A stretch of 64,000 nucleotides of DNA from Alphaproteobacteria bacterium (GCA_041917755.1 JAYRWY010000003.1:8563-72562); one strand, 5' to 3'. Positions 1-51,068 are shown, counted from the first letter of the stretch. Program-made: numbers and translations. Notes: generated from the sequence alone by a model not told the origin.

Positions 1-579
1 GAGGCAACGGTTCTGTGCTGCTTTAATCAAACCTATAAAATCACCCCAGCGGTGTTTGATGTGTGGATGCGGCTATTGCAAGACGATGCATCCTTGGTTC
101 TGTGGTTGTTTGCGCCGCATAAAGTGGTGCAGGACAATATACGTGGCGAAGCCCAAAAACGTGGTATTGACCCGGAGCGTATTATTTTTGCTGACCGCTT
201 GCCGCAAGCAGAACACATTGCGCGTTATCGTCATGCTGATGTGGTGCTTGATACAGCGCCATATGGCGGCCATACCACTACCAGTGATGCCTTATGGGTG
301 GGTGTGCCCGTCATAGGATTATCTGGCAAAAGCTTTGCCTCACGCGTATCAGCAAGCTTATTGAAAGCAGCAGGCTTACCTGAATTGGTAGCGCCATCAC
401 TTGATATTTATGAAACCAAAATCCGTGAGTTATTAAAGGATGAGGAACGTCGTTCTTCGATCCGGCAACACCTTCAACAAGGCCGCGAAAGCCTGCCATT
501 ATTTGACAGCAAGACGTTTGTTAAAAATCTTGAAGCAGCATATCAAACTGCATGGAATGAAAGTGGACAAAGCAAATGA
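1..579 (+). CDS. GT41 family glycosyltransferase (O-GlcNAc transferase-like), C-terminal part; 5' end lies outside the window
   Basis: The frame is open from base 1. The translation (NQTYKITPAVFDVWMRLL..., DTAPYGGHTTTSDALWVGVP, ASRVSASLL) aligns with the conserved catalytic C-terminus of OGT/SPINDLY enzymes. Confidence 0.75.
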   Translation, partial: EATVLCCFNQTYKITPAVFDVWMRLLQDDASLVLWLFAPHKVVQDNIRGEAQKRGIDPERIIFADRLPQAEHIARYRHADVVLDTAPYGGHTTTSDALWVGVPVIGLSGKSFASRVSASLLKAAGLPELVAPSLDIYETKIRELLKDEERRSSIRQHLQQGRESLPLFDSKTFVKNLEAAYQTAWNESGQSK

Positions 580-1778
580 ACTTACCCATTGAGCTGATTG
601 CATGTGGTCTAGGCGGTGTTGTTGTTGGATTTATTATTTCGCGAATTTTTGAAGGTTTAAATCGCAAACGATTGGCCGAGCAATTTAAGGCACTGTCCAA
701 TGAAGCCTTAACAGCCAACCTTGATGTACTTTTAAATCTTGCGAAGAATGAATTATCGCATGAGCGCGAAAATGCCCGTCATGATTGGGAAAAACGCACG
801 CATAATGTTGCTGAGATGTTAAAGCCATTGGAGCTGCGATTAACCCAATTGCAAACCCAAACTGGCGAAATGGAAAAAGCGCGTATTGGTGCCTATGAAG
901 GCCTTAAGCAGCATCTTGCTCAAATGGCTGAAACACAGACGCAACTACGCAGTGAAACTACCCAATTAAAGCAAGCATTGCGTAAACCGGAGGGGCGTGG
1001 CCGTTGGGGTGAAATGCAATTGAAGCGCGTGCTTGAAATGTCGGGCATGATTGCGCATTGTGATTTTACCGAACAAACCAATACCACCACGCAGGATAAT
1101 CAACGCCTTCGCCCAGATGTGATTGTGCATTTGCCCGGTGACCGTCAAATTGTGATCGATTGTAAAACGCCGCTAGATGCCTTGCTGGATATTACAAATG
1201 CAGAACCAGACCAAATCGCGCTCACCCATCAACGTCATGCACGGCATTTGCGTGAGCATGTAAAAAGCCTTAGCCAAAAAGCCTATTGGGATCAATTCAA
1301 GCAATCACCTGACTTTGTGGTGATGTTTGTTCCCGGCGAACATTTTTTATCAATTGCCTTACAAAACGATCCAGAATTATTCGATTTTGCATTTAAAAGC
1401 CGGGTAATTATGGCCACGCCAATCAATCTGATTGGTCTTTTAAAAACAGTTGCCCATGCATGGCGTCAAGAAAAATTGGCCGAACAAGCGCAGAAGATTG
1501 CAAGTTTAGGCAAAGATTTATACGAGGCTATGGCATCATTTGCAGGGCATTTTGAGAACATTGGCGATAGCCTTCGCAAAACGATTGATCATTATAATAA
1601 ATCTGTCGGATCGTTTGAGGGGCGCGTTCTATCCCGCGCGCGTCGCTTAGCTGACGAGTACAGCATTGAAAGTGATAAGAAAATTGCTGTGTTAGAGACC
1701 GTGGATGTTGCCCCGCGTCAGCTGGCTTCAGCTGCAGATGACGATAAAGTCATCGAAAAAAAGCAAGAAGTGGCTTGA
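576..1778 (+). CDS. rmuC: DNA recombination protein RmuC
   Basis: 400 aa with an N-terminal TM helix, a coiled coil and an RmuC-type C-terminal nuclease-like domain. It overlaps the upstream gene by 4 nt. Confidence 0.8.
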   Translation: MNLPIELIACGLGGVVVGFIISRIFEGLNRKRLAEQFKALSNEALTANLDVLLNLAKNELSHERENARHDWEKRTHNVAEMLKPLELRLTQLQTQTGEMEKARIGAYEGLKQHLAQMAETQTQLRSETTQLKQALRKPEGRGRWGEMQLKRVLEMSGMIAHCDFTEQTNTTTQDNQRLRPDVIVHLPGDRQIVIDCKTPLDALLDITNAEPDQIALTHQRHARHLREHVKSLSQKAYWDQFKQSPDFVVMFVPGEHFLSIALQNDPELFDFAFKSRVIMATPINLIGLLKTVAHAWRQEKLAEQAQKIASLGKDLYEAMASFAGHFENIGDSLRKTIDHYNKSVGSFEGRVLSRARRLADEYSIESDKKIAVLETVDVAPRQLASAADDDKVIEKKQEVA

Positions 1779-1833
1779 AATCAATAGGTTGAAGCACATA
1801 TATTTCTTTAAATCTTTTATGTGAAAATAGACC

Positions 1834-2376
1834 ATGGTTTTAAAACTAAGAATTGTACCAGACCCCGTATTACGCAAGATGGCCGATCCTGTAAAAACAG
1901 TCGATCGCGAAGTAAGCCGTTTTATGCATGAAATGCTTGAAACCATGTACAAAAGTGCAGGGGTGGGTCTGGCTGCACCACAGGTTGGTGAATTGAAACG
2001 AGTGATTGTGGTGGATGTTGCCGAAGAGCAAAACGCTGAGCATGCCTTCATGATGGCAGATCCTGAAATCACATGGCGTTCGGAGGAATTATTCACCTAC
2101 CGCGAAGGCTGCCTTTCCATACCCGGCCAATATGCCGAAGTAACCCGCCCAAAACGTATTCGCCTGAATTACACAGATGTTAACAATAAGCGGGTTGAGA
2201 TGGAGGCCGAAGATTTGCTTTCCACCTGTATCCAGCATGAAATTGACCATTTAAATGGCGTTTTATTCGTGGATTATGTTTCAAAGCTTAAGCGCGATAT
2301 GATGCTTAAGCGCGTTGAAAAAGCCCAACGTTTAGCCGCAGAAGATAGTGAAAAGCTGGGTGGTAAGTCCCTCTAG
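1834..2376 (+). CDS. def: peptide deformylase
   Basis: Carries the [18 protein letters not shown] and HEIDHLNG metal-binding motifs. Confidence 0.95.
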
Positions 2377-2396
2377 TTTTGTCTATCTTGCTGGGC

Positions 2397-3332
2397 ATGA
2401 ATTCAACCTTAAAGCCATTACGTATCATTTTTATGGGCACGCCGGAATTTTCCGTTGCGGCGCTCAATGCCTTGCTTGATGCAGGGTATCAGGTGGTTTG
2501 TGTGTATAGTCAACCGCCGCGTCCAGCTGGCCGTGGCCATGCTATTCAAAAATCAGCCGTGCATCTTGCTGCTGAAGCGCGCGCAATTCCTGTGCGCACC
2601 CCAACCAGCCTTAAGCAGGTGGATGAACAGCAGGCTTTTGCCGACTTAAATGCGGATGTGGCCGTTGTGGTGGCCTATGGTCTATTGTTACCAAAGCCAA
2701 TTCTTGATGCGCCAAGATTGGGGTGTATCAATATTCATGCATCTTTGTTGCCGCGCTGGCGTGGGGCCGCGCCCATTCAGCGCGCAATCCTTGCCGGTGA
2801 TGCAGATAGCGGCGTCACGATTATGCAGATGGATGTGGGGCTTGATACCGGTGCGATGTGGCTCAAGCGTAGTGTTCCCATCACGACGCATACGACAGCG
2901 GGTTTATTGCACGATGAATTATCTAGGTTAGGCGCGCTAATGATTGTGGAGGCATTGCCACAAATCGATGCAGGAACACTGCAAGCAACTCAGCAGCCAG
3001 AGCAGGGCGTAACTTATGCTGCGAAGCTCACAAAAGATGAAGGTCGCATAAATTGGCAAGACAGTGCGGCGGAAATTGAACGCAAGCTGCGTGGTTTGTC
3101 GCCATGGCCGGGTGTATATTTTGAAAGCCGCGGTGAACGTATCAAAGTTATCGAAGCCAGTGTTGTGTTCGGTATGCATGGGCCAAGCGGCACTTTACTG
3201 AATGATGACTTTACAATTGCATGTGGTGAAGATGCGATTGCTTTAACAAAAGTGCAGCGCCAAGGACGCGCTATAACCGATGGTGCATCATTTCTTCGCG
3301 GTTTTTCAGTCAAGATTGGCGAGCAGTTATAA
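2397..3332 (+). CDS. fmt: methionyl-tRNA formyltransferase
   Basis: The [13 protein letters not shown]-terminus is conserved in Fmt. The gene lies directly downstream of def, as in the def-fmt operon. An alternative TTG start exists at 2379. Confidence 0.9.
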
Positions 3333-4072
3333 TGCAGCGCTGGAAGCTCACAGTTGAATATGATGGTGCAGGCTTTTCTGGCTGGCAAATGCAGAAAGAC
3401 GCGCGATCTGTTCAATCAACCATCGAAGAAGCTATCAAAAAATTTTGTAATGAAGATGTTCGCATCCACGTAGCAGGTCGCACCGATGCAGGTGTGCATG
3501 CATTGGCACAAGTGTGCCATGCAGATATTGAACGCGAAACCGACGCTGAAACCGTTCGTGATGCCATTAATTATTATATGCGTCATCACCCGGTGATTGT
3601 GCTGGATGTGGAGCCGGTAACAACTGATTTTCATGCGCGTTTTTCTGCGCTATCGCGTCATTACATGTACCGCGTGATTAACCGTCCGCGTCCATTGACG
3701 ATTGAACGTGGTTTTGCAACACATTTCTATAAGCCTTTATCATTGGAGCCAATGCAACATGCAGCGGCACTTCTGGTCGGCCATCATGACTTCTCATCCT
3801 TTCGCGCTATCAATTGCCAGTCGCCTTCACCTGTCAAAACGATGTTAGAAGCGCAGGTTGAACAGACCGGTAATGAATTCCATTTTAAATTTGGCGCCAA
3901 ATCATTCTTATACCATCAGGTGCGCAATATGGTGGGTAGCTTGTTCTTCGTAGGTACCGGCCAATGGAGTGTAGATGATTTTAAACAGGCTTTTGAGGCT
4001 AGAGACCGCACCAAGGCGGGGCCTACTGCACCGCCACAAGGCCTATATTTTACAGGCGTCCGCTACGAATAG
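3332..4072 (+). CDS. truA: tRNA pseudouridine(38-40) synthase TruA
   Basis: Contains the TruA motifs WKLTVEYDGAGFSGWQ and GRTDAGVHA. Its ATG overlaps the fmt stop by 1 nt. Confidence 0.9.
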   Translation: MQRWKLTVEYDGAGFSGWQMQKDARSVQSTIEEAIKKFCNEDVRIHVAGRTDAGVHALAQVCHADIERETDAETVRDAINYYMRHHPVIVLDVEPVTTDFHARFSALSRHYMYRVINRPRPLTIERGFATHFYKPLSLEPMQHAAALLVGHHDFSSFRAINCQSPSPVKTMLEAQVEQTGNEFHFKFGAKSFLYHQVRNMVGSLFFVGTGQWSVDDFKQAFEARDRTKAGPTAPPQGLYFTGVRYE

Positions 4073-4170
4073 GCCTATAACCTGCATATTCCTACTTTCA
4101 GTTATTGGCCTGCCGCGCTAAAACAGATCCCATAAAAATAAAGAAAAACGATAATATAAAAGGGATAGTT

Positions 4171-6108
4171 ATGCGCTTTTGGGTCCTCCTTATATTGCTC
4201 TTATTGCCCGTATCAGCTTGTCAGGATGTACAGCTGGATAAAATTGATCCTGTGATGGATTTAAATCGTGATGATTACCGCGATTTACGCAAAGAACGTG
4301 ACAGCAATGAAGGCCCACCCATTCCGCGTGTACCATTCAAGGCAAGTGCGAATTCAAAAAACAAAATTGCCAACGATAAAATTATTTCAATTTCTATAAC
4401 CGAAAAAGTTCCGGTTAAAGATGTCTTGCAGGAATTAGCCAGCAAGGCAGAAGTCAATCTTGAACTTGATCCGCGGATTTCAGGCGGCGTGATTTTTACT
4501 GCCATTCGTCAGCCATTTTCCAAGGTACTTGATCGCTTGTGCAATATGGCTGGTTTGCGGTATAAGGTTGAAGATAATTTTTTGCGAATTGAATTGGATG
4601 AGCCGTTTATCAAAAGCTACCCGATTGATTACCTGACATTGATACGTAAATCACAAAGTGAAATCGGGATTGCCACCAATGTATTCTCCAGCATTCAGGG
4701 TAATGGCCGCAGCAATAACTCCAATAATGGCAGCGATGTAGCCAGTGGTAATAACTCAACCACCAAGGTCGAAACGCAAGCTATTGCCGATTTTTGGGGA
4801 GAAATTGAAGCCAATGTGGAATCCATCCTCACTAATACAAAAAGCAGCCGCAACATGCGGGTAGATGGTGAAACGCTTAAAGAGCTTAAACAGGAAGGGA
4901 TTTCACCTACCAAAGCTTTCTCAATCAATAAGCAAGCCGGGCTCGTCAGCGTATTTGGCACAGACCGCCAACAGCAAGCTATAGAAGCATATCTCGTAAA
5001 AATCAGACGCAACGTCAGTTCCCAAGTTTTGATTGAAGCGCGTATCATCGAAGTAGAGTTAGATGAAAATTATAAGAGCGGCATCAATTGGCGTTCACTT
5101 TTCAATAGTGGCGTCAACGCTGCGGCACGCTTTGGTACGGCAGCGGCGGGCGCACCATTCGCGTCTGCGGCTACAGCAACAGATGGCGTAGTTACGCTAT
5201 CCCTTAAAGATAACGATTTCGCAGGAGTGCTAAATTTTGTTCGCAGCTTTGGTACGTCGCGCACCCTATCTAGCCCCCGCTTAACAGTGCTTAATAACCA
5301 ACCTGCAGTGCTTAAAGTCGCACGAAACGAGGTTTATTTTACCTCCACCATTGAAACCACACCAATTATTGGAACCAACGGAGGTAGTCCGGTGGGTGTG
5401 CAACGCACGGTCAACAGCACCCCAAATACAGTGCCAGTTGGCTTTTTAATGACAGTCCAGCCATCTATTAATCAAGAGCGTGATGAAGTGACGCTTAATC
5501 TGCGTCCGACTGTATCTTTTATTGTCGACCGTGTGGAAGACCCTGGTGTGAAGATTGCCGCTGCTGACGCTAACGTACCGGAGGTGTCGTCCTCCATACC
5601 CGTGGTGGCCGTGCGTGAAATGGATAGCGTCCTTACGCTAAAATCAGGTGCCGTCGCAGTGATGGGTGGTTTGATGCAAGATGCATCAGGTAACCTTGAG
5701 AAAGGTGTGCCATTTGCAGACGAAGTCCCTGTATTCGGTAACCTTGCGAAATCACGCAGTAACGATTCCAAGCTAACTGAACTTGTTATCCTGCTGCGTG
5801 CAACCGTCATGAATAACGATGCACCAAAGCCAGATGATGCAGATATAGAGCTATATAAGAAATTTAATCGCGATCGCAGACCATTACCTGTTTCATCCAA
5901 ATCAAATGACATTCAAGCATCAGATGAAGAACTGGATGGTGAATATGTAGATGATGGTCAGATATTGCCTGCGGTTTCTTCAGCCAAGGCAGCAAGCCGA
6001 GTGAACGATACCAGAACATCTGTGAATAACGGGGATAAGTCGCATAAGAAAAAAGCGACCAAGCATAAAAAGCATAAATCCAAAAAGAAAAAACACCACA
6101 GGCATTAA
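4171..6108 (+). CDS. secretin (GspD/PilQ family) of a type IV pilus / T2SS-like system; predicted lipoprotein with a polybasic C-terminal tail
   Basis: Signal peptide with lipobox LPVSAC. An N0/N1-like domain is followed by the conserved secretin C-domain (LSSPRLTVLNNQPAVLKV, VPFADEVPVFGNL, ELVILLRATV). The C-terminus is KSHKKKATKHKKHKSKKKKHHRH. Start chosen at the ATG with a GGGA RBS (ORF track begins at 4105). Confidence 0.85.
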   Translation: MRFWVLLILLLLPVSACQDVQLDKIDPVMDLNRDDYRDLRKERDSNEGPPIPRVPFKASANSKNKIANDKIISISITEKVPVKDVLQELASKAEVNLELDPRISGGVIFTAIRQPFSKVLDRLCNMAGLRYKVEDNFLRIELDEPFIKSYPIDYLTLIRKSQSEIGIATNVFSSIQGNGRSNNSNNGSDVASGNNSTTKVETQAIADFWGEIEANVESILTNTKSSRNMRVDGETLKELKQEGISPTKAFSINKQAGLVSVFGTDRQQQAIEAYLVKIRRNVSSQVLIEARIIEVELDENYKSGINWRSLFNSGVNAAARFGTAAAGAPFASAATATDGVVTLSLKDNDFAGVLNFVRSFGTSRTLSSPRLTVLNNQPAVLKVARNEVYFTSTIETTPIIGTNGGSPVGVQRTVNSTPNTVPVGFLMTVQPSINQERDEVTLNLRPTVSFIVDRVEDPGVKIAAADANVPEVSSSIPVVAVREMDSVLTLKSGAVAVMGGLMQDASGNLEKGVPFADEVPVFGNLAKSRSNDSKLTELVILLRATVMNNDAPKPDDADIELYKKFNRDRRPLPVSSKSNDIQASDEELDGEYVDDGQILPAVSSAKAASRVNDTRTSVNNGDKSHKKKATKHKKHKSKKKKHHRH

Positions 6109-6173
6109 AAGCAGTTTCAACCACTAGTTGTATGGTTTAAAAATGCATACACGGCTATTCATTACATAATTCT

Positions 6174-6842
6174 ATGGGGTCACGAATGCGCGCGCGTCAC
6201 AATACTCACCACCATGCTGGTTTTACCCTTGTTGAAGTATCGATTGTGCTGGTTGTTATTGGCTTGTTGATTGGCAGTATTCTGGTAGCGGTAAACATTC
6301 TACAGAACGCTCGTATCACCGGCACGATAAGTACGTTGCAAAGCATCCAATCCGCTATCTCTACCTATAATCAAAATTATGGTGCTGTACCAGGTGATGA
6401 TGCACAAGCAACCTCGCGTTTTAGCATTGTCACAAACAGTGGTGGTGGCGACGGTATCGTTGGTACCAGCACAAGCTATAATTCCACCGCGGCGCTTGCA
6501 AATGGGAATGGTGCACCTGAAAGCCGTATGATCTGGGCAGATCTTCGCGCCGCTGGCCTCATTAAAGGGCAGGGTAGTGATGCCACGCAGCCCGGCAATT
6601 CATTTGGAGGCATATTCGGGGTTCAAAATGGTGCTTTTACCACCAATGGTTTTGCCGACAAGACGAATGTGTTGTGTCTAGACAAGGTTCCTGGCTCTGC
6701 AGCAACAATTATTGATCAACGTCAGGATGACGGTAACCCGCAAACAGGAAATATCCGTGCAGGTGTTGCAATTGATGGTGCAGCAGCTACCAATCCATAT
6801 GTAGAAACAAGCGTCTACATACTATGCACCCGCGCACTGTAA
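6174..6842 (+). CDS. type IV prepilin / pseudopilin (class III signal peptide)
   Basis: Leader MRARHNTHHHAG followed by FTLVEVSIVLVVIGLLIGSIL (G-1, F+1, E+5, hydrophobic helix). Start could be 6174 or 6186. Confidence 0.8.
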   Translation: MGSRMRARHNTHHHAGFTLVEVSIVLVVIGLLIGSILVAVNILQNARITGTISTLQSIQSAISTYNQNYGAVPGDDAQATSRFSIVTNSGGGDGIVGTSTSYNSTAALANGNGAPESRMIWADLRAAGLIKGQGSDATQPGNSFGGIFGVQNGAFTTNGFADKTNVLCLDKVPGSAATIIDQRQDDGNPQTGNIRAGVAIDGAAATNPYVETSVYILCTRAL

Positions 6843-7624
6843 TCTTGAATTCTGAACAAGGTTTTACATTGGCTGAAACCGCAATGGTATTGGCAATATT
6901 GGCGGTTGTGATTGGCACGCTGGTGCCTAGCTTTCTATCCATCCGCGTATCAGAGCAAGCCAGAACAACTTCTCAAAATTTGCAGACTGTTATGCGCTCC
7001 ATCGCGGCATTTGTTCAGTCATCAGGCTGCCTGCCTTGTCCCACGCCGGCCAGCGCCGCTTTCAGTAATGGCCATGGCTATGTGGCGGGCGGGAATGGCA
7101 CCGCCTGTGGTACGTGTTCTAACCCAACTGGGTTGCTGCCTTTCCGTTCGCTTGGTTTACAGGAGGCTTTGGCCAAGGATGCCTATGGCCATTGGCTTAC
7201 CTATGCCGTTGATACACGGCTAGCCAGTTATGTGGCCAGCGCACCAAATACCCAATTGCCAGTATCGGGCACTAATGGTTTGTGCAGTGTGACCATGGCT
7301 ACCGCTGCTCCGCTGGATATCCAGCTTAGTAACGGGGCACATCAATCGAATATAGCTGCAATGGTATTAAGCCATGGTGCAAATGGCTATGGCGCGTACA
7401 GGAATAATCCAAATGACGGCCGTCTGGCGTTTCCAAATGCCACTCCGGCATGTTCAGGCACAACAGGGGCTGAGCGATGCAATGCACGGGATAATAATCG
7501 GAACTTTATAACGCCCATCGCAGCTGCAGGTAATGATCCATTCGATGATAACTATCTGTATCTGGATCGCAATTCATTGGTGAGTTATCTGGGCAATCCT
7601 GCTTGTACAACAGGGTGGCCATAA
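6824..7624 (+). CDS. type IV prepilin-like protein (minor pilin or pseudopilin), Cys-rich
   Basis: Leader MHPRTVILNSEQG followed by FTLAETAMVLAILAVVIG. The mature part contains 8 Cys. It overlaps the previous pilin gene. Confidence 0.75.
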   Translation: MHPRTVILNSEQGFTLAETAMVLAILAVVIGTLVPSFLSIRVSEQARTTSQNLQTVMRSIAAFVQSSGCLPCPTPASAAFSNGHGYVAGGNGTACGTCSNPTGLLPFRSLGLQEALAKDAYGHWLTYAVDTRLASYVASAPNTQLPVSGTNGLCSVTMATAAPLDIQLSNGAHQSNIAAMVLSHGANGYGAYRNNPNDGRLAFPNATPACSGTTGAERCNARDNNRNFITPIAAAGNDPFDDNYLYLDRNSLVSYLGNPACTTGWP

Positions 7625-9336
7625 TGAAAAACGTTCTGAGCTTTCCAGAAATAAACCCAAAACGTCAAATGATCGGGGAATGGTTGTGTGCTCAAGGTAT
7701 CTTGAATGACGACCAGCTTCGTCTTGCCTTGCATGAACAAAAACAGCATCCGGATTTATTGGGACGGATACTTGTAAAGCTGCGCTTTATACAAGAAGAA
7801 CATGTCATTGAGGCGATTAGTGCGCAAACAGGTTTTTTAACTGTAAACCTTGCACATACCTCAATTGATGAAGATGCGGGGCGTTTTTGGGATAAAGACA
7901 TAGCCCAGCGTTATAAAGCCGTGGGCATTATGCTCGAAGACAATACTTTGTCTGTTGCGATGGCCGACCCATTGGATATCCGTGCCACCGATGCTATCAA
8001 GCGACAAATTCCTATGGATTTTGGATTGCGCTTTTTCATCGCAACCGAACAAGACATTCAGCAGTATATTGCCCGTGCCTATGGCCGTGCCGAGAATTTC
8101 AAATACCACTTAAGTGAAATGGAGCAGGGGCTGATCTCCCCAGTGCTCGATACAGTTGAAAATCACCCTGTCATTGCCACTGTCGAAGCTTTGCTGGCTG
8201 AAAGTGTAGCCAGTGGCGCCTCCGATATTCACTTGGAGCCGGAAGAAAAAACGGTGCGCATTCGTTTACGTATCGATGGCCAACTTAAAACTATCAGCCT
8301 GCTGCATCGTGCCTCTTGGCCGCGCTTGGCACAGCGTATCAAGGTTTTGGCAGGCATGGATATTGTTGACAGTCGTAACATTCAAGATGGCCGATTTCAT
8401 TTACAAATAGCCGGTAAGAATGTGGATTTTCGCGTATCTATTTTGCCCACCCAGCACGGCGAGAATATTGTCATTCGTATCCTTGATCAGGCGAGGGCCT
8501 TGTTACCCTTAGAACAGCTAGGCTTTAGCCAGCAGCAGGAATATTTATTACGTCGCTTGTGTTTGCGCCCAAACGGCATGGTTGTGCTCACGGGCCCAGT
8601 GGGTTCGGGTAAAACCACTACGCTTTACGCACTTCTGCAATTATTAGACAAGGATACGCGTAGTATTCGTACGCTTGAAGACCCGATTGAGTATCAATTA
8701 GAAGGTATTCGCCAAACACAAATCCGTGAAGGCTTCGGTCTCAGTTTTGCGGAAGGTGTACGTGCGGTTCTTCGCCAAGACCCCAACGTGCTCCTTATTG
8801 GTGAAATCCGTGATGCAGATACAGCACAAATGGCGTTGCGTGCTGCCATGACGGGCAGCCAAATTTTCACAACACTGCATACACAGGATAGTTTCGGGGT
8901 GTTCCCGCGTCTGCGTGAATTTGGTTTATCTCCGGGGTTAATGTCCGGGAATATTACCGCTACAGTAGCCCAGCGCCTGGTACGACTATTGTGTCAGGAT
9001 TGTAAGACAATGCGTGCGCCCGATGCCCATCTCAAATCGTTATTGTCCAGCAGCATCGAATTGCCACATAAGGTAGGACACCCTGTGGGCTGCCCGGCAT
9101 GTGATGATACAGGATATAAGGGACGTATCGTTATTTCAGAAGTATTACCCATCGATGCTGAATTGGACGAATTGATTGTCAGCAGTGCATCGCGCGCGCA
9201 ATTACTGCATGCCGCCAAGTCCAAAGGTTTTATCAGCATGGCCCAAGATGGCCTGAGTAAACTTGCCGAAGGCTTGATTAGTTTAGAAAGCCTCATGGCT
9301 GAGGTGGATCTCATCCATGCATCTGGCGGGAGCTAG
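7624..9336 (+). CDS. type II/IV secretion assembly ATPase (GspE/PilB family)
   Basis: GspE-type N-terminal domain, Walker A GPVGSGKTT, and the tetracysteine motif CQDC...CPAC that is typical of extension ATPases. Its ATG overlaps the pilin stop by 1 nt. Confidence 0.9.
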   Translation: MKNVLSFPEINPKRQMIGEWLCAQGILNDDQLRLALHEQKQHPDLLGRILVKLRFIQEEHVIEAISAQTGFLTVNLAHTSIDEDAGRFWDKDIAQRYKAVGIMLEDNTLSVAMADPLDIRATDAIKRQIPMDFGLRFFIATEQDIQQYIARAYGRAENFKYHLSEMEQGLISPVLDTVENHPVIATVEALLAESVASGASDIHLEPEEKTVRIRLRIDGQLKTISLLHRASWPRLAQRIKVLAGMDIVDSRNIQDGRFHLQIAGKNVDFRVSILPTQHGENIVIRILDQARALLPLEQLGFSQQQEYLLRRLCLRPNGMVVLTGPVGSGKTTTLYALLQLLDKDTRSIRTLEDPIEYQLEGIRQTQIREGFGLSFAEGVRAVLRQDPNVLLIGEIRDADTAQMALRAAMTGSQIFTTLHTQDSFGVFPRLREFGLSPGLMSGNITATVAQRLVRLLCQDCKTMRAPDAHLKSLLSSSIELPHKVGHPVGCPACDDTGYKGRIVISEVLPIDAELDELIVSSASRAQLLHAAKSKGFISMAQDGLSKLAEGLISLESLMAEVDLIHASGGS

Positions 9337-9338
9337 CC

Positions 9339-10541
9339 ATGCCTCATTACGCGTATCGTGCGGTAAATGAACAAGGCATGGTCAATAAAGGCGAGGCCCT
9401 TGCTGCCAACGAGAACGAGCTGTATGCCAAACTTCAGCAGCAGGGTTTAAATCTGATTGATTGCCACGATCGGCATGATGGTCAAAAATTATTTCAAAAA
9501 AAAATGAAACTAGCAGAACAGGTACTGCTATGTCGCCATCTAGTCATGCTCACCAAGGCAGGGGTTCCCGTCCATACAGCACTTGAAGATGTCTTACCAG
9601 CTCTGCCTGGCAATATCCGGCATAATGTCAGTTTAATTCTAGGCAATATAACAAGTGGTCAAAGCTTATCGTCATGCTTTGCTGAATCCAGTATGAAATT
9701 TGATCCGTTATTTTCCTTATTGCTAAGCGCCGGTGAAAAAACAGGAAAAATTACACAGGCACTGGAATATCTCTACGAAACTTTGAATTGGAAGCAGGAT
9801 TTTACCCAAAAATTGCAGCGCGCCTTATCATATCCATTATTACAAACAGCCATTGCCGGTACCGCAGTGGTTGTGCTGATGACAATCGCGGTTCCGCAAA
9901 TCATCCAGTTACTTGAAGTGATCGGCGAGCACTTACCCATTGCATCGGTTGCATTATTGTGGGGTATGAAACTTTTGGGTGCGGCAATTATTGTATTGGC
10001 CGTTTGCTCACTTGCAGCGGTAGTGTTTTTGCCATTTATCAAAAAAATGCATAATGACATCGCTGAATATATCGACCGTCTATGTCTTTCATTGCCTGTC
10101 ATTGGGCCCTTATTTAAAAAGGTTGAATTGGCACAAATAACCCATGTGTTCTCTGCAATGCTTGGTAGCGGGGTTCAGATGATGGAGGCATTGCAGTTGC
10201 TTCCCACTTTGACAAATAATACCGCCATGGCCGCATCATTGCGCCAAGCAGCTGAGCAGGTAAGAGGCGGGCAGGGCTTAAGTGCCGTATTAACCAAACA
10301 ATTGCTGATTCCCCCTTATGTCATTCGCATCCTAAAAATAGGCGAAGACAGCGGCAAAATGAGCGAAAGCCTTCGCCATATTTCACATGTTTATCAGGAA
10401 GAAAGCCGACAGGCCCTCGATCAGCTACTTAAAATTAGTAGTCTGTTCATCACTGTTGCGGTAGGCTTAATCCTTATATTGATGGTTAGCGGTGTCATGG
10501 TGCCGCTGTACCGTGGCATTAGTCATATGGTGGCTACATGA
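9339..10541 (+). CDS. inner-membrane platform protein (GspF/PilC family)
   Basis: 400 aa with two repeats of the GspF domain and TM helices. Starts 2 nt after the ATPase gene stop. Confidence 0.9.
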   Translation: MPHYAYRAVNEQGMVNKGEALAANENELYAKLQQQGLNLIDCHDRHDGQKLFQKKMKLAEQVLLCRHLVMLTKAGVPVHTALEDVLPALPGNIRHNVSLILGNITSGQSLSSCFAESSMKFDPLFSLLLSAGEKTGKITQALEYLYETLNWKQDFTQKLQRALSYPLLQTAIAGTAVVVLMTIAVPQIIQLLEVIGEHLPIASVALLWGMKLLGAAIIVLAVCSLAAVVFLPFIKKMHNDIAEYIDRLCLSLPVIGPLFKKVELAQITHVFSAMLGSGVQMMEALQLLPTLTNNTAMAASLRQAAEQVRGGQGLSAVLTKQLLIPPYVIRILKIGEDSGKMSESLRHISHVYQEESRQALDQLLKISSLFITVAVGLILILMVSGVMVPLYRGISHMVAT

Positions 10542-11839
10542 TTTTCTGTGGCGTAACGCGTTATACTCTTTTGCTTGGTGCGCGTGCGGCTGTGCTAATG
10601 CTGACGAATGGCAAAGACATCGAGACCAGTTGGATACTTCCATACAACAGCGATACATTTTATGAAACACTGTTAAATGCCATCAAACGCCATCCATTTT
10701 ATCCGTTAAAAATTGTGGTGGATTCAGCTCAGTTAGACGTACGCCTGGAATCTCTTCCTCCAACCAGTCCTTGGGCACGTCATAAACTGATTGAACGTCA
10801 ACGCGCCCATTTATTTCCGAAAGCCCAGCTCGAAACATCGTCTACCTACCGAGATGCCAATGGCAAGTGGATGGTATTGCATGCCGCCACCCCAGAAGAA
10901 GCTTGGCTGCAGCCGATCTTTGACAAACTCCAACAGATAGCTAATCCCATCGAACCGTTGTCATTTCTGGCAACCGAATGGTTCGATTTTGCTGGCCAGG
11001 TTTCAGTCATGCCTAAAAAAGGATGGGCATTTATCAATGTGCTAGGCGAAAGCTTTGGGTTGCGCCAATTGGTACTTAATGATGGTAAGCTGGTCTTTAC
11101 ACGTAGCCATCCAGACTGCGTTCCTAGTCTTCCTAAAGATGAATTGGCTCAGCGCATAGCGGCTCATATTCGATCAACGCAGGATTATCTGCCGCGCATT
11201 GATGCGTCATTGTTAAATGGTGTTATACCGCGCCTGTATGTGACCGAGCATCATAAGGAACTTACCGAAATTCCCGCACTCACCGCGCTGAATATTCAGC
11301 TCATCGCGATTGCTTCGCCAAAAACAGCGCACATACCTGCAGAATGGGCGGCTGACGTTGCATGGCTGCAGGTTGCGGCACAGGAAAAGCATGCAGCAAT
11401 GCCGATTGATACCAGCTGGCTCAAGCAAATGCGCGATGGCAGCATGAAGAAGCAGATTGCCCTATGGGTATTGATTTTCTTTGGCAGCGCAGGAATTTTT
11501 AGCGGTATGTCGATACTGACCAATGTTGATAGCGGACAACAGGTGCATCCCGCATCTGCGCCATCATTAGCCATGGAACCGGTTAAGCCCGTATCGGTTG
11601 TTGAACCCCCTTTGCCCACGCCGCCAGAGCTTAAACTTAACGCCGTGATTTATAATAATCCGCAGGATTGGGTTGTCTGGATTAATGGCGTAAAACATCT
11701 ACCGGGCGAGGACAAACAACATCTAACCATGTTGGATGTGTCGCCACAAACGGTGCTGGTTCATTGGCAAGATGGAAAAGCTGAACAACGCATCACCTTA
11801 AATTTGGTGCCGTCTATTCATACGGTTCAGCAGCCTTAG
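10538..11839 (+). CDS. bitopic pilus/secretion assembly protein: cytoplasmic domain + TM + periplasmic PilP/GspC-like HR domain (putative GspL/PilM-PilP fusion)
   Basis: Its start overlaps the platform gene stop (ATGA). There is a single TM helix (ALWVLIFFGSAGIFSGMSIL). The C-terminal segment LKLNAVIYNNPQDWVVWINGVKHLPGEDKQHLTMLDVSPQTVLVHWQDGKAEQRITLNL fits the PilP/GspC HR-domain pattern. Confidence 0.55.
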   Translation: MIFCGVTRYTLLLGARAAVLMLTNGKDIETSWILPYNSDTFYETLLNAIKRHPFYPLKIVVDSAQLDVRLESLPPTSPWARHKLIERQRAHLFPKAQLETSSTYRDANGKWMVLHAATPEEAWLQPIFDKLQQIANPIEPLSFLATEWFDFAGQVSVMPKKGWAFINVLGESFGLRQLVLNDGKLVFTRSHPDCVPSLPKDELAQRIAAHIRSTQDYLPRIDASLLNGVIPRLYVTEHHKELTEIPALTALNIQLIAIASPKTAHIPAEWAADVAWLQVAAQEKHAAMPIDTSWLKQMRDGSMKKQIALWVLIFFGSAGIFSGMSILTNVDSGQQVHPASAPSLAMEPVKPVSVVEPPLPTPPELKLNAVIYNNPQDWVVWINGVKHLPGEDKQHLTMLDVSPQTVLVHWQDGKAEQRITLNLVPSIHTVQQP

Positions 11840-12621
11840 TTATTTTCTAAAAATTGAATTCGTGCCTTGATGGCTTTGGCGGTTTGCGCATCCCCGCGCC
11901 AAAGGTTTTGTGCCTTTTTATATGCCGATATTGCGGGTTGATATTCGCCTTGTTCATCAAAGGCTCTGGCTTGTTCCAACAGCAAAGCAACACAATTGCT
12001 TCGTAATTGTAAATCATTCGGGGCTGATTTTATCGCGCTCATATATAATTCGATTGCTTTATTGATGTGACCAGTGGCGATGGCTTCATCAGCTTGTTGC
12101 TGCAATCGTTCAGATTTGGTCTGACTACGCGACGTCTCAACTTCAATGTAGCTTTTCGTCGTTAATGATGGTTTAGGCGACTGTGCAACAGGAAGGCGTT
12201 CTAACATGGGAACTAAATCCAGTTTTTCAGGCCCTTTAGATTTCTGGAAGTCTTTGCCCAATATAAATGCTTTGCTCGGTAATGGCGGAATAGCAGTGGC
12301 AGGAAACGCTGCTTCGGGTTCGTCATTATTTTTTATGTTCTGCACGGCGCTGGCCTGTATGCTTTGCGCGCTTATATGCTGTGCTTCGCGCCACATGTGA
12401 TTGAGTTGATCCCCTAACATGAACAGTGCAACAACGCTTGTTATAAAAAACGATATAATGGCGCCAAGCAGCGCATACAAAATATTCGGAGATGGCTGCC
12501 ATAGCCGTTGTTTGGAAAAATCAATCACCATAGGCTGCGCGGGCATGGGCGCGGCTTGCTCAGGCGTTAGCTTTGCCAGAGTAGGGGTGGTTTTAATTGT
12601 TTTCAAAATGATATGCGCCAT
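11836..12621 (-). CDS. membrane-anchored TPR-repeat protein
   Basis: One TM helix, a Pro-rich linker and TPR-like C-terminal helices (AIELYMSAIKSAPNDLQLRSNCVALLLEQARAFDEQGEY...). It lies downstream of atpF and is convergent with the pilus operon. Confidence 0.6.
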   Translation of the reverse strand: MAHIILKTIKTTPTLAKLTPEQAAPMPAQPMVIDFSKQRLWQPSPNILYALLGAIISFFITSVVALFMLGDQLNHMWREAQHISAQSIQASAVQNIKNNDEPEAAFPATAIPPLPSKAFILGKDFQKSKGPEKLDLVPMLERLPVAQSPKPSLTTKSYIEVETSRSQTKSERLQQQADEAIATGHINKAIELYMSAIKSAPNDLQLRSNCVALLLEQARAFDEQGEYQPAISAYKKAQNLWRGDAQTAKAIKARIQFLENN

Positions 12622-12668: not shown

Positions 12669-13169
12669 TTAGGCTACGTTTTTAAGGGCTTTTGCCATAT
12701 CCGCAGTTTGCTGCTCGATAAGTTTCTTATCATGCTCAGTGCCCAGATGCGTGCGTAGGATAGCTTCTGCAGCCTTTAAAGCCACATCAACAGCCTGCGC
12801 GCGGATTTCTGTAGCGGCTTGTTCTTGAAGCAATTGAATGCGATCCAGTGCCTGTTGCTCGCGGCGCTTGAGTGTGACTTCTAACTCTTTTGCTGCTTGC
12901 GACTGAAGTAATCGTGCTTGTTCTTCTGCACGCGCAATAATCGCATCGGATTCTTTGAAAGCATTGTTGTGCTTGGCTTGGGTGTCTGCAAGCAACTGGG
13001 CTGCTTCCGCATGCAAGGCAGCTGCCTGATCTAATTCCTGCTTTACCTTCACGCCGTAATTATCAAGAGCGCTGGCAATAGCTTTGCCGCCGGCTTTCCA
13101 TGCAATCACAATGAAAATGATAAAGGAAAGTGCAAACCACGCAGTTGGGTCATTGAGTAATTCTTGCAT
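12669..13169 (-). CDS. atpF: F0F1 ATP synthase subunit b
   Basis: An N-terminal TM helix is followed by a long Ala/Gln/Glu-rich helix. The gene sits in the atpI-B-E-F'-F operon context. Confidence 0.85.
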   Translation of the reverse strand: MQELLNDPTAWFALSFIIFIVIAWKAGGKAIASALDNYGVKVKQELDQAAALHAEAAQLLADTQAKHNNAFKESDAIIARAEEQARLLQSQAAKELEVTLKRREQQALDRIQLLQEQAATEIRAQAVDVALKAAEAILRTHLGTEHDKKLIEQQTADMAKALKNVA

Positions 13170-13170
13170 G

Positions 13171-13875
13171 TTATGCCTTCCTTACTTTTTGAAGTGCAGC
13201 TTCAATATCTGATGCAGAAGGGGATATGCCAGCTACGCTTTTTACCAATGCGCCAACAACACTGACCACTTCTTTATCCAAGGTGGCAATGGCTTTATTC
13301 TTTTGCTCAAGAATACGCGCATCCGCAGCTTTGATATCGCTGTTTACTTTGGCCGTTTGTACGCTTAGCGCTTCGTTGGCTTTTTTGGCGCTTTCTTCAG
13401 TCACGGTTCGGGTTGCTGTTTGTGCATCCGAACGTGCTTTGGTCAGCCGTGTTTCATATTCAGCCATCAAATGTTTAGCAGCCTCGTTCTTGGCCTTAGA
13501 TCCACCAATATCTGTCGATATACGTTTTTCACGTGTTTCCAATGTTTTTTCAACGCTTGGCAAGGCCACGTGCTTCATCAGTACATAGGTCAACAAGAAG
13601 GTAATCGCTAGCCAAAATAACTGGCCAGGAAAACGGCTAATATCCATTTGTGGCAAGCCGCCAGAACCTTCACCATGCGAAGCATCACCATGCCCAGTTT
13701 CATGACCAGCTTCAGCACCATGCCCACCCGCAGTGGCAGGCGCAGCTTCTGGTTGTGCAACAGTTGCTTGCGCAGGGACTGGTGCATTTTTATGCGAACG
13801 GGCTGCGCTGGCTGGCGAAGCCAGACCAAACGACAGCACAATCATTGCACAAAAGAGAACAGCATGCTTCAGCAT
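13171..13875 (-). CDS. atpG: F0F1 ATP synthase subunit b' with an N-terminal extension
   Basis: The alphaproteobacterial b' signature LPQMDISRFPGQLFWLAITFLLTYVLM is preceded by a signal-peptide-like segment and a His/Gly-rich stretch. The ORF track extends to 13974. Confidence 0.8.
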   Translation of the reverse strand: MLKHAVLFCAMIVLSFGLASPASAARSHKNAPVPAQATVAQPEAAPATAGGHGAEAGHETGHGDASHGEGSGGLPQMDISRFPGQLFWLAITFLLTYVLMKHVALPSVEKTLETREKRISTDIGGSKAKNEAAKHLMAEYETRLTKARSDAQTATRTVTEESAKKANEALSVQTAKVNSDIKAADARILEQKNKAIATLDKEVVSVVGALVKSVAGISPSASDIEAALQKVRKA

Positions 13876-13903
13876 CGTGACCCTAATACGTCTGAGGTAT
13901 TGC

Positions 13904-14134
13904 TTACTTAGCAACGAACAGCAACAGCATGGATACAACGAAACCGAGCAACAGCACGAGTTCGGTAGCAGCAAAGCCGATGAAGCCAGTGGTGCTCATT
14001 TGCTTAGCAGCCGCTGGGTTGCGTGCGATACCTGAAAGCCATGCGGCAAAGATATTGCCAAGGCCGATACCGGCGCCAAGTGTACCAATCATGGCAATAC
14101 CGGCGGCGAGAAGTTTCATTGCAGCTGCATCCAT
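13904..14134 (-). CDS. atpE: F0F1 ATP synthase subunit c
   Basis: A 76-aa c-subunit hairpin that ends with a conserved acidic residue in helix 2 (ATELVLLLGFVV). Confidence 0.9.
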   Translation of the reverse strand: MDAAAMKLLAAGIAMIGTLGAGIGLGNIFAAWLSGIARNPAAAKQMSTTGFIGFAATELVLLLGFVVSMLLLFVAK

Positions 14135-14173
14135 TTGAGTCTCCTTTGTGATGCGTTTAAAAAAAATAGTAGG

Positions 14174-14953
14174 TTAGTGAAGTTCCAGCGCGTCGTGCAG
14201 ATACACAGCGGCCAAAATTGAGAAAATGTAAGCTTGTAATCCGGCTACAAAAAATTCAAATCCAGTCAGGGCGACGTTAAGCAAAACTGGAAGGGGTAAC
14301 AATATCATGGTAGCGCCGCCTGCGGTCATCAGCATCACGGCCATACCTGCGAACACTTTCAACATAATGTGTCCTGCCATCATGTTGGCGAACAGACGAA
14401 TGGAAAGGCTGAAAGGACGCACACAGAAGGACATCACTTCAAGCACAAACATTAACGGTACCATAACCAACGGTGTGCCATGCGGTACAAACAGGCTGAA
14501 GAAATGCAGGCCATGCTTGGCAAAGCCTGTGATAGTGACCGCCAAAAACACAATAAGTGCAAGGCAGAAGGTAACCAGAATATGTGATGTAACCGTAAAA
14601 CTGTACGGCACCATACCCAATAAATTGCAGAACAAAATAAAAATGAATATGGAGAAGATAAGCGGAAAGTAAGGCTTTGAATTTTCGCCAGCGGTATCGC
14701 TCACAATATTGGCAACGCTGTTATGCAGCATTTCGGCTGCAGCCTGAAAACGACCCGGAATAAGTGACTTTTTCTGCATGCCCAGTACAAAAAACACAGT
14801 AGAGCAAATCACTGCCAGAAACATAAACAGCGACGAATTAGTCAATGAAACGTCATAGCCTGCAACGTTCAGTGGCAAGATGGTGTTAATTTCAAATTGA
14901 TGGAGTGGTGAACTCATTGAAGGGGCAGGGTAAGTCGTGAAAATGTGAATCAA
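14174..14953 (-). CDS. atpB: F0F1 ATP synthase subunit a
   Basis: A polytopic protein that carries the conserved SLSIRLFANMMAGH motif. Confidence 0.9.
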   Translation of the reverse strand: MIHIFTTYPAPSMSSPLHQFEINTILPLNVAGYDVSLTNSSLFMFLAVICSTVFFVLGMQKKSLIPGRFQAAAEMLHNSVANIVSDTAGENSKPYFPLIFSIFIFILFCNLLGMVPYSFTVTSHILVTFCLALIVFLAVTITGFAKHGLHFFSLFVPHGTPLVMVPLMFVLEVMSFCVRPFSLSIRLFANMMAGHIMLKVFAGMAVMLMTAGGATMILLPLPVLLNVALTGFEFFVAGLQAYIFSILAAVYLHDALELH

Positions 14954-30734: not shown

Positions 30735-31095
30735 AGTGGGGGGCTTCTGTTGCCCGGTGCCCCCCGGACCGCTAAGCTTTTCGCTTAACTACCGAATCCC
30801 AAAGGATTAAGCAGCTAGAGCTACGCGAGCTTCAGGAGCAACGTTGTCGTTGGCATCCGTAGTTGTTAGCCCGATAACGGCGGAACCATGCCGAGCAAAA
30901 ACTGTACTTTTACTACATACGTCGATCCTAGTTCGCCCCCACATATTGGCTCTTTGCGACTGCTCTGCGCTTTACGCAACCGCGACTGCAAAAGTAATCT
31001 CTTCCTGAGCCAATATGGTGGAGGCGCCGGGTACCGCCCCCGGGTCCGTCCTGCTTATTCTGTACAGCGTTTATCACCATAGTCGGCGAACCGAC
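30735..31095 (-). ncRNA. ssrA: tmRNA (ssrA), circularly permuted two-piece type; gene boundaries approximate
   Basis: Minus strand: T-arm (CCGGG/CCCGG stem) plus CGCCTCC-A-CCA, with the 3' end at 31016. The 5' strand GGGGGCG begins at 30940 and gives a G3:U70 wobble. The tag ORF GCC AAC GAC AAC GTT GCT CCT GAA GCT CGC GTA GCT CTA GCT GCT TAA at 30854-30807 encodes ANDNVAPEARVALAA. The CCA end precedes the tag ORF in gene orientation. Confidence 0.8.
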
Positions 31096-31298
31096 GGTTC
31101 TGTTTATATCACAAAACCTTTACAATTCGATTGCTTATTTTGGACTGCCTGTATTTTAGCCAATTCTTTCAAGCAATTATGCGACTTTTTTCATGTGAAT
31201 TGTGCCGTGAATGTGTTTGACGGGGGGATGCATTCTAAAAGAAACTATGACCCATCAACGTTCCGTTTTGATTCTTCCTTTCTGGCCCTCATTGGATA

Positions 31299-38217: not shown

Positions 38218-38913
38218 ATGTCACGCTACACTACTTCAACTAAGCTTATGGCGGCCAGTATCAAGCATAGTGACATTGATTATTCAGTTCCGCTCAAAGA
38301 TAGTATCATTGATCACACCCTTGATCGTGCCCGCATCAGTGATATGGATGCTGCATTGGCCGCAATTAGTGAAGCGCAGCATCTAATTCAAGCGCAACGT
38401 CGCCGCATTGCCTATCTTGAAACTCTTTCCCTAAGTGATGAAGTAACCGGCCTGGTCAATCGCCGTGGCTTTATGTCGGCATTTCACCGTGAATTAGCTG
38501 CAGCAAAGCGTGACCCGCAGGCTCACGGTATCGTGATGATGTTCGATTTAGATGATTTCAAATTGGTCAATGATGGCCATGGTCATGCCGCAGGCGATGC
38601 CTACCTTTCATCGTTTGCTGCGGTATTAAGTAATGAAGTTCGCCCAACGGATATTGTTGCCCGTATTGGCGGAGACGAGTTTGCGGTCATTTTAACAAGA
38701 GCTGCTGCAAAACCAGGACTTGCACGCGCCGCCGCTATCATTAAAACCATCAATAGCAAGGTAATGACCTGGCGTCAGCATACCATCCAGCTTAAAGCCA
38801 GCTGCGGCCTTGCCACTTATACTGGCCGTGATATTGCCGAGGCAGTTATGGTCTCGGCTGATCTTAAACTCTATGCCGACAAGCAGAAGCGTAAGAAAAA
38901 CAGCGTCAAATAA
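38218..38913 (+). CDS. GGDEF domain diguanylate cyclase with N-terminal coiled coil
   Basis: GGDEF-domain sequence LVNRRGF...FDLDDFKLVNDGHGHAAGD...RIGGDEFAVIL. Confidence 0.85.
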   Translation: MSRYTTSTKLMAASIKHSDIDYSVPLKDSIIDHTLDRARISDMDAALAAISEAQHLIQAQRRRIAYLETLSLSDEVTGLVNRRGFMSAFHRELAAAKRDPQAHGIVMMFDLDDFKLVNDGHGHAAGDAYLSSFAAVLSNEVRPTDIVARIGGDEFAVILTRAAAKPGLARAAAIIKTINSKVMTWRQHTIQLKASCGLATYTGRDIAEAVMVSADLKLYADKQKRKKNSVK

Positions 38914-49070: not shown

Positions 49071-49124
49071 ATCGGGCTTTGGCCTATTTCCTTTGACAAA
49101 AAACCTCATTCAACGCATCTTCTA

Positions 49125-51068
<1,944 letters not shown>

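Follow-up and report, generated by a model that had tools for sequence, protein, structure and literature searches.

A 64-kb stretch of DNA from an uncultured alphaproteobacterium, referred to below as the window and forming part of a contig of ~81 kb, carries a compact operon of six plus-strand genes for a type IV filament machine. The last of these genes encodes a bitopic protein, here called p6, in which a PilM-like cytoplasmic domain and a periplasmic domain of the homology region (HR) type known from PilP, GspC and GspB are joined in a single chain. All six open reading frames (ORFs) that a preliminary description of this DNA had placed at 4171-11839 were recovered by ORF calling and translation, and they are listed here together with the convergent gene that follows them (lengths in amino acids, aa; TM, transmembrane; TPR, tetratricopeptide repeat):

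4171-6108, plus strand: secretin, 645 aa, probably a lipoprotein
6174-6842, plus strand: prepilin 1, 222 aa, matching N_methyl and TIGR02532
6824-7624, plus strand: prepilin 2, 266 aa, matching TIGR02532, with N_methyl just under the cutoff
7624-9336, plus strand: extension ATPase, 570 aa, with MshEN and T2SSE domains
9339-10541, plus strand: platform protein of the PilC/GspF family, 400 aa, with two T2SSF domains
10538-11839, plus strand: p6, bitopic, 433 aa, belonging to no Pfam or NCBIfam family
11836-12621, minus strand: convergent gene for a bitopic TM and TPR protein, 261 aa, with a C-terminal periplasmic TPR region

The close packing reported for these genes was reproduced at each junction, namely a 1-nt overlap at 7624 (a TAATG junction between prepilin 2 and the ATPase), a 2-nt gap at 9337-9338 between the ATPase and platform genes, and a 4-nt overlap starting at 10538 (ATGA at 10538-10541, platform and p6). 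Two further overlaps had escaped that description: the prepilin genes share 19 nt (6824-6842), and the 3' end of the operon is overlapped by 4 nt by the convergent minus-strand gene at 11836-12621. The domain identities proposed for the first five genes were likewise upheld by searches with profile hidden Markov models (HMMs) from Pfam and NCBIfam, which returned Secretin, N_methyl, T2SSE and T2SSF.

What, then, is the sixth protein? It divides into three parts:

10538-11461, plus strand: p6 residues 1-308, cytoplasmic actin-like (PilM-like) domain and juxtamembrane helix
11462-11632, plus strand: p6 residues 309-365, TM helix (309-327) and Pro-rich periplasmic linker
11633-11839, plus strand: p6 residues 366-433, HR domain, a six-strand beta-sandwich with a DWxVWING motif, followed by a short tail and the stop codon

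A hydropathy scan finds the single TM helix at residues 309-327, and the ~38-residue Pro-rich linker behind it has low predicted local distance difference test (pLDDT) values in the structural model. Searches of sequence families gave nothing usable: p6 itself matches no family in Pfam or NCBIfam, none of nine scanned relatives has a credible Pfam match, and sequence profiles of structures in the Protein Data Bank (PDB), queried with the whole protein and with the C-domain, returned only spurious FN3/titin matches. Comparison of structures alone was informative. It matched the C-domain best to the HR domains of GspC and GspB, and in three sequences weak but recurrent Pfam matches to T2SSB cover that segment (E 0.014-0.06); this six-strand beta-sandwich belongs, moreover, to a secretin system and is carried by a periplasmic protein tethered to the membrane. 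The N-domain has the actin-like (ASKHA) fold, is attached to the inner membrane and is encoded beside the platform and the ATPase; since the full-length model is of moderate quality, its assignment to PilM rests on 3Di and sequence similarity together with gene position, not on a tight superposition. Both domains carry invariant residues. GspC, GspB and PilP use their HR domains to bind the secretin, at its N0 domain (PMC9239104, PMC10191384). Of the earlier label, a bitopic accessory protein, the topology stands, whereas the notion of an orphan accessory does not: p6 is a fusion of a PilM-like protein with a PilP/GspC/GspB-type HR domain, and the alignment function is condensed into one chain rather than absent.

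A word-indexed database contains only 16 close relatives of p6, all of them hypothetical proteins from alphaproteobacterial metagenome-assembled genomes (MAGs), and a p6 profile run against 1.84 billion cluster representatives recovered 1003 proteins at E <= 1e-3. Most of the latter are 480-600 aa long and align only over p6 residues 1 to ~260-350; about 25 sequences, of 420-447 aa, match from end to end. The view that the cluster has no identical, well-studied ortholog therefore holds, every p6 relative being a hypothetical MAG protein with no Pfam, NCBIfam or PDB sequence match. In one relative, a contig of 376,213 bp (P0009 and P0286, apparently one contig) encodes an aspartyl-tRNA synthetase (AspRS) 95% identical to that of the window and a p6 of ~71% identity, so that the connector of the pilus has diverged far more rapidly than housekeeping genes.

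The origin of the fusion becomes visible when p6 is compared with related loci (numbered with the prefix L below), which were collected by scanning species-representative genomes with the p6 alignment and by adding the contigs of more divergent fused proteins. Five of these loci (L004, L005, L007, L008 and L010), from more distant alphaproteobacterial (Micavibrio-like) or 'Rickettsiales'-labelled MAGs, have fuller clusters in which p6 is split into two genes flanking a PilO-like one. The order there is ATPase, platform, p6 N-domain protein, bitopic protein, p6 C-domain protein and ABC ATPase, and the three central genes of L008 are as follows:

L008 gene 3: 548 aa, the p6 N-domain, a TM helix and a long periplasmic part
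L008 gene 4: 217 aa, bitopic, PilO/GspM-like by position, with a faint T2SSM match
L008 gene 5: 226 aa, periplasmic, with the p6 C-domain and its invariant DWxVWING at the end

Across the five loci the stand-alone C-domain protein measures about 170-320 aa, and hhalign relates it to the p6 C-domain with 99.1% probability (E 4e-19). Taken with the split gene order, this alignment identifies p6 as the first of the three proteins, up to its TM helix, joined to the HR domain of the third. Judged from these sequences, neither the PilO-like gene nor the PilN-like periplasmic stretch of the fuller clusters has been retained. The remaining components are related as well, the ATPase at 42-44%, the platform at 26-30% and the secretin at about 32-34% identity to the window, and both p6 halves are homologous. 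In each of the five loci there is also a pilin gene or else a pair of genes for PilT-like ATPases; L008 and L010 continue with a TPR protein (in L008 a 601-aa TM and TPR protein), PilD, PilT, PilU and a secretin, which in L008 is an MshL-like lipoprotein encoded last in the cluster. The nearest named relative of the L008 PilD comes from Micavibrio sp. The compact module thus differs from the fuller clusters in lacking the ABC ATPase, the long TPR protein, PilD, PilT and PilU within the locus, and in the placing of the secretin, last in the fuller clusters, and of the pilins, which lie there elsewhere or downstream. The fuller cluster is the ancestral type and the evolutionary source of the parts of the compact module. 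As a separate observation, the ABC-transporter-type ATPase gene, which in L008 occupies 12971-13750 on the plus strand directly after the gene for the HR-domain protein, has homologs in L004, L005, L007, L009 and L010; the proteins are 43-50% identical between loci, and the compact module has no counterpart.

The preliminary description had also asked for neighbourhood conservation to be checked in related genomes, and the order secretin-pilin-pilin-ATPase-platform-p6 is indeed retained. Layout and flanks in L001-L003, from the assemblies CAZMQI01, JAKFVN01 and RGZA01 respectively, are as in the window. L022, L024 and L025 keep the six-gene order in the same def-fmt-truA / atp context at a p6 identity of 44-49%, and L028 and L029 keep it in unrelated contexts, that of L029 lying between purD and flagellar genes. 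The last two loci have diverged widely from the window (secretin 48-49% identical, pilin 1 44%, pilin 2 35-38%, ATPase 42-46%, platform 30% and p6 23-27%). Intact ORFs and a fixed order over such divergence and in three contexts argue strongly that the six genes form a functional unit and not a fragment or remnant.

The secretin ORF opens at a TTG at 4105, and translation from the ATG at 4171 yields a signal peptide with the lipobox VSAC, whose Cys is kept in the secretins of all related loci. Its Pfam matches are Secretin (92.6 bits) and Secretin_N_2 (40.4 bits). Among NCBIfam models MshL (TIGR02519) comes out on top with 213 bits, under the cutoff of 250, followed at a distance by GspD (105 bits, cutoff 351) and PilQ (68 bits, cutoff 284). 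An N-terminal stretch resembles the N-terminus of HofQ and residues 155-227 of Vibrio cholerae PilQ (6w6m), and residues ~70-140 are, by this similarity, likely to form an N0 domain that precedes Secretin_N_2 and the secretin core. At the C-terminus (~5980-6105) the protein carries a strongly basic tail rich in Lys and His (…KSHKKKATKHKKHKSKKKKHHRH); a Lys-rich tail likewise ends the secretins of L003, L022 and L025, but not that of L029 or the secretin of the fuller cluster L008.

Both prepilin ORFs have a class III signal peptide, in which a hydrophobic stretch of 16 residues comes after G|FTL[VA]E. Prepilin 1 has a 16-aa leader ending in G, the mature N-terminus FTLVE and a C-terminal Cys pair (C168/C218); it scores 25.7 bits against N_methyl (Pfam), in addition to its TIGR02532 match, and its orthologs in L022, L025, L028 and L029 are 216-228 aa long with the Cys pair retained. 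Prepilin 2 has a 13-aa leader, the mature N-terminus FTLAE and eight Cys residues including two CxxC pairs; its N_methyl score of 20.1 bits is just below the cutoff, and its TIGR02532 score of 16.7 bits just above (cutoff 16.3). Cys-rich orthologs of 233-309 aa fill its position in all compact loci, and pilin 2 and its orthologs in L022, L024, L025, L028 and L029 have 8-14 Cys with the conserved CxxC pairs GCLPCP and ACGxC. Throughout the relatives, then, the size and Cys pair of pilin 1, the CxxC pairs of pilin 2 and the secretin lipobox are retained together. Prepilin 1 is the candidate major pilin and prepilin 2 a candidate minor or tip pilin, its richness in Cys, unusual for a type IV pilin, suggesting several disulfides or a metal site. 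When the six frames of the 64 kb were scanned for the motif, only these two prepilin signatures appeared, in agreement with the earlier remark that there is no second set of minor pilins.

Of the core set of type IV filament machines, an ATPase of the PilB/GspE family and an inner-membrane platform of the PilC/GspF family are present besides the prepilins, but a prepilin peptidase (Peptidase_A24) was not found in the sequences searched. The ATPase matches T2SSE with 374 and, in its N-terminal part, MshEN with 57 bits in Pfam, and its core contains CxxC...CxxC; in NCBIfam it scores 464 bits against PilB (cutoff 676) and 444 against GspE, both under the equivalog cutoffs, and among solved structures in the PDB it lies closest to PilF (374 bits), PilB (356) and GspE (340), with BfpD (113) and PilT (107) far behind. 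A domain model for the MshE-related c-di-GMP (cyclic di-guanosine monophosphate) motif, NF053729, is matched with 50.6 bits (cutoff 38). Translations read by eye revealed a PleD-like response regulator with two receiver domains and GGEEF (35099-36460, minus strand) and a second GGDEF-type protein (38218-38913, plus strand), and the host thus possesses c-di-GMP signalling, to which the MshEN domain of the pilus ATPase could respond. The platform contains two T2SSF domains (126.7 bits, Pfam), and its NCBIfam matches, GspF with 220, HofC with 151 and PilC with 150 bits, are all under their cutoffs.

The convergent gene at 11836-12621 may well belong to the same system. The TPR matches of its product are under the Pfam cutoffs; L001-L003 on the one hand and L022, L024 and L025 on the other have convergent homologs in its place, 49-55% and 27-32% identical respectively, and further TPR genes are found behind the p6-like gene of L027 and within the fuller clusters. 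No TPR gene stands beside the modules of L028 and L029. By analogy, the protein is probably a seventh, accessory component comparable to MshN, TadD or PilW.

As to what the locus lacks, the earlier statements proved accurate. Neither tblastn nor a PilD HMM built from 120 sequences found a prepilin peptidase in the window, the contig extensions or the compact-module loci; the same HMM recovered the positive controls in L008 and L010 and nothing at E < 1 in those sequences, and among the 120 matches listed for the L008 PilD as query none lies on a contig of the compact clade. Queries with PilT and PilU found nothing beyond the PilB-like gene, whether in the window, in the contig extensions or in any compact locus. 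No separate gene for PilM/N/O/P or for GspC/L/M stands in or beside the locus, and the PilO-like protein of L008 found nothing in the compact loci. In all, PilD, PilT and PilN/O are missing from the ~81-kb contig and from the 10 kb around the compact-module loci. Could the complementary genes lie just outside the window, which would make the operon an ordinary piece of a known system? The contig beyond the window ends was read from near-identical Logan contigs, and the extensions carry housekeeping genes only, dxs, mlaC and glycosyltransferases on one side and pyrB, pyrC, rluD, asmA, mlaA and an MMPL protein on the other. With both contig ends read, the idea of a fragment of a larger locus was rejected. 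Nor is the absence of a peptidase from the locus unusual by itself, because loci of the mannose-sensitive haemagglutinin (MSH) type normally lack PilD (PMC6668835).

Taken together, these findings are best read, with a probability of roughly two in three, as a self-contained, vertically inherited pilus assembly module of the type IVa (T4a)/MSH lineage, which uses a single-chain PilM-HR connector and a peptidase encoded elsewhere. How might such a module work? Drawing on what is established for type IV pilus (T4P) and type II secretion system (T2SS) machines (PMC10191384, PMC9239104), both prepilins would be cleaved and N-methylated by a PilD encoded elsewhere, as is assumed from MSH systems (PMC6668835). 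The PilB-like hexamer, acting on the PilC-like platform, would then polymerise pilin 1 into a fibre, with the Cys-rich pilin 2 probably priming or capping it in the manner of the single minor pilin of type IVb (T4b) systems, and the fibre would leave through the MshL-type lipoprotein secretin. In this scheme p6 would take the place of the alignment complex, whether PilM-PilN-PilO-PilP, MshI-J-K or GspL-M-C: its PilM-like domain would hold the ATPase and the platform, its TM helix and flexible, ~38-residue Pro-rich linker would span the inner membrane and part of the periplasm, and its HR domain would clasp the N0 ring of the secretin, so aligning the motor with the pore. The TPR protein probably aids secretin assembly or anchoring. 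The most likely role, by analogy and as the default guess for an MSH-like pilus, would be adhesion or attachment to surfaces or to other cells.

Several observations weigh against this reading of a self-contained pilus module. No prepilin peptidase occurs in any sequence searched. No characterised T4a or MSH system is known to manage with as few as two pilins. For full-length p6 the model is only of moderate quality, with a pLDDT of 60.8 and TM-scores of about 0.2. The ATPase gene of L003 contains an in-frame stop at ~7250-7260 ('...LLEA*SAQTG...'), which could be a MAG assembly error or a local inactivation or loss of the module. The c-di-GMP motif has degenerated in the clade (Arg replaced by Met or Leu in motif 1, Arg by Leu in motif 2, and the turn Gly by Arg); control of the ATPase by c-di-GMP is possible in view of the motif model, which is passed, but three highly conserved residues are replaced. 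Finally, the genome beyond the contig may hold PilN/O-like proteins, more minor pilins or a PilT that serve the module.

The alternative that survives best, though it is unlikely, is a reduced T2SS in which a short periplasmic pseudopilus pushes folded proteins through the secretin and p6 represents a fused GspL-GspC. In its favour, the GspE score of the ATPase (444 bits) almost equals that for PilB (464), and GspF (220 bits) is the top NCBIfam match of the platform. The C-domain of p6, too, finds its best structural match in the HR domain of GspC, and the cytoplasmic domain of GspL is among the marginal Foldseek matches; reduced T2SSs without GspLM and minor pseudopilins are, moreover, known from Chlamydiae (PMC6668835). 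The secretin, however, prefers MshL (213 bits) over GspD (105 bits, cutoff 351), and although the pilin N-termini match GspG, this match covers only the generic N-terminal helix (28.7 bits, cutoff 88.9), and pilin 1 has 222 aa and a C-terminal Cys pair where the NCBIfam model of GspG has 134 positions. There is no GspH-K, no GspM and no PDZ-bearing GspC, no obvious exoprotein gene is linked to the module, and the homologous fuller clusters hold both PilT and PilU, the marks of retractile pili. Of the two possibilities left open by the preliminary description, a pilus or a reduced secretion system, the first is therefore favoured: an MshL-best secretin, an MshEN ATPase and a large pilin 1 with a Cys pair point to a T4a/MSH-like pilus rather than to a T2SS, and the suggestion of a competence pilus fares no better.

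A pilus for DNA uptake, i.e. a minimal counterpart of the T4aP-like (T4aP, type IVa pilus) transformation pili of diderm bacteria, is in fact quite unlikely. It could draw on the dprA gene in the window (61917-63041, minus strand), but this lies ~50 kb from the operon and is near-universal in bacteria, and comEA, comEC and comF were not seen in the window or the contig extensions. Likewise, the resemblance of the secretin N-terminus to HofQ and V. cholerae PilQ is countered by the fact that the HofQ matches are weak and limited to generic secretin domains. Com systems typically have few pilins (PMC10191384); the scores for ComGA and ComGB/C, however, are far under their cutoffs and under the PilB and GspF scores, and membership in the Com group was rejected on the ATPase and pilin scores. 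Very unlikely, lastly, is a locus in decay or left incomplete, or one that works only within a larger canonical system encoded elsewhere, so that its compactness would mean nothing mechanistically: the absence of PilD and PilT from the locus, the unseen remainder of the genome, the stop codon within the L003 ATPase gene and the drifted c-di-GMP motif would fit it, but in the window all six reading frames are uninterrupted and coupled in translation, the module is intact in at least eight further lineages down to a p6 identity of 23% and in three genomic contexts, the fused p6 keeps invariant residues in both domains, and a decaying locus would not preserve six ORFs and their order over such divergence.

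Other features of the window are:

576-4072, plus strand: rmuC-def-fmt-truA flank, housekeeping
12669-14953, minus strand: F0 ATP synthase genes, the other flank, housekeeping
30735-31134, minus strand: alphaproteobacterial two-piece tmRNA, above the Rfam gathering threshold
49124-49216, plus strand: thiamine pyrophosphate (TPP) riboswitch ahead of a thiC-like gene at 49260, above the Rfam gathering threshold
52987-53060, plus strand: SAM_alpha riboswitch, above the Rfam gathering threshold

The AspRS encoded in the window is 75-78% identical to that of Azospirillaceae, and its closer relatives all come from MAGs. Rfam models found no riboswitch near the operon, for c-di-GMP or otherwise, a search for tRNA genes found none, and promoter and terminator scans around the operon gave sites no commoner than in shuffled sequence. 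A 472-aa ORF at 54606-56024 on the minus strand has a signal peptide and an N-terminal half rich in Ser, Ala and Pro; no Pfam match is on record for the identical gene in L019.

If the pilus module with a one-chain connector is real, what is its significance? It would rank among the simplest machines of this kind in a bacterium with two membranes. A bolder proposal, that it is the simplest natural trans-envelope type IV pilus of a diderm, made of six dedicated genes, a shared peptidase and a one-chain tether between motor and secretin, can only be put forward tentatively. Were it true, PilN, PilO, a separate PilP, the four core minor pilins and perhaps the retraction ATPase would be dispensable, and the periplasmic PilN/O cage would not be mechanistically required for fibre assembly or pore alignment. 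The PilMNOP or GspCLM subcomplex could serve either as an essential mechanical part or chiefly as a stabiliser of the platform and ATPase (PMC10191384). A lineage that has retained just the ends of the alignment complex, with a flexible linker connecting the PilM-like clamp to the HR domain, would offer a direct test case, and it suggests that the essential job is to tether the motor to the pore rather than to build a periplasmic cage. With six genes in 7.7 kb, the module is small enough to synthesise and would make a tractable minimal system for structural work and for the engineering of secretin-dependent filaments. It also extends MSH-like secretin and ATPase parts into uncultured Alphaproteobacteria, and p6 defines a family of about 1000 cluster representatives for which neither Pfam nor NCBIfam has a model.

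How does the module relate to the filament systems already known? As had been remarked, the locus is much smaller than T4aP or T2SS loci and is aptly described as a compact six-gene type IV filament operon. The closest parallel is the MSHA pilus of Vibrio, with which it shares an MshL-best secretin with Secretin_N_2, an MshEN ATPase, a single locus devoid of prepilin peptidase and retraction ATPase genes, and an associated TPR protein (there MshN). Unlike MSH systems, which have MshI/J/K/N/F and the ExeA-like AAA+ protein MshM, the operon has no MshM ORF in or beside it, a single fused protein replaces MshI, MshJ and MshK, the gene order is different, the secretin stays under the MshL cutoff (213 bits, cutoff 250), and there are two pilins where the MSHA pilus has ~7 (MshA-D, O, P and Q). 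In the published MSH model MshM is mandatory, and the MSH loci all lack a peptidase (PMC6668835); a published classification scheme would probably score the module as 'generic' or as an atypical MSH. The same survey adds Chrysiogenetes and Epsilonproteobacteria to a distribution formerly confined to Gammaproteobacteria and never mentions Alphaproteobacteria (PMC6668835).

With the PilMNOP complex of the T4aP of Pseudomonas, Neisseria and Myxococcus the module has in common the PilM-like cytoplasmic domain, the PilP-type HR domain and their position in the machine, PilP being known as the link between PilQ and PilMNO (PMC10191384). In p6, however, both ends reside in one 433-aa chain without the ferredoxin-like periplasmic domains of PilN and PilO, and its HR domain is tethered by a TM helix, whereas PilP is a lipoprotein. 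Of the defining features of the T4aP proper, separate PilM/N/O/P, PilT, a PilQ-type secretin and a PilB of equivalog level were not found at the locus. T2SS components offer partial likenesses: GspL has a cytoplasmic actin-like domain and a TM helix as p6 does, and in GspC and GspB a linker connects a TM helix to an HR domain, which binds the N0 domain of GspD (PMC9239104). Unlike GspC and GspL, p6 has no PDZ domain, coiled coil or GspL periplasmic domain, and no GspM accompanies it; nor is the remainder of the machine like a T2SS. GspB is known to occur fused to GspA, its cytoplasmic partner, but that partner is an AAA+ protein, whereas the one fused in p6 is PilM-like.

T4b pili such as the toxin-coregulated pilus (TCP) and CFA/III resemble the module in their simplified machine, with one major and one larger minor pilin and fewer proteins in the place of PilMNOP, for which TcpR/TcpD stand in (PMC10191384). 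Membership was nevertheless rejected, as BfpD scores 113 bits against about 356-374 for PilB and PilF, the pilins have Phe at +1 and leaders of 13-16 aa, and the secretin is of the MshL type. Type IVb prepilins have a long leader and a residue other than Phe at +1. The resemblance is thus convergent and not a matter of membership. Tad/Flp pili were rejected as well, the pilins of 222 and 266 aa not being short Flp proteins and the TadA-family score being 54.5 bits (cutoff 373). No description was found in the literature of a fusion of the PilM-PilP or GspL-GspC type, of this module or of an alphaproteobacterial MSH-like system. What is new here is the fused PilM-HR connector, in a module built from parts of the T4a/MSH type.

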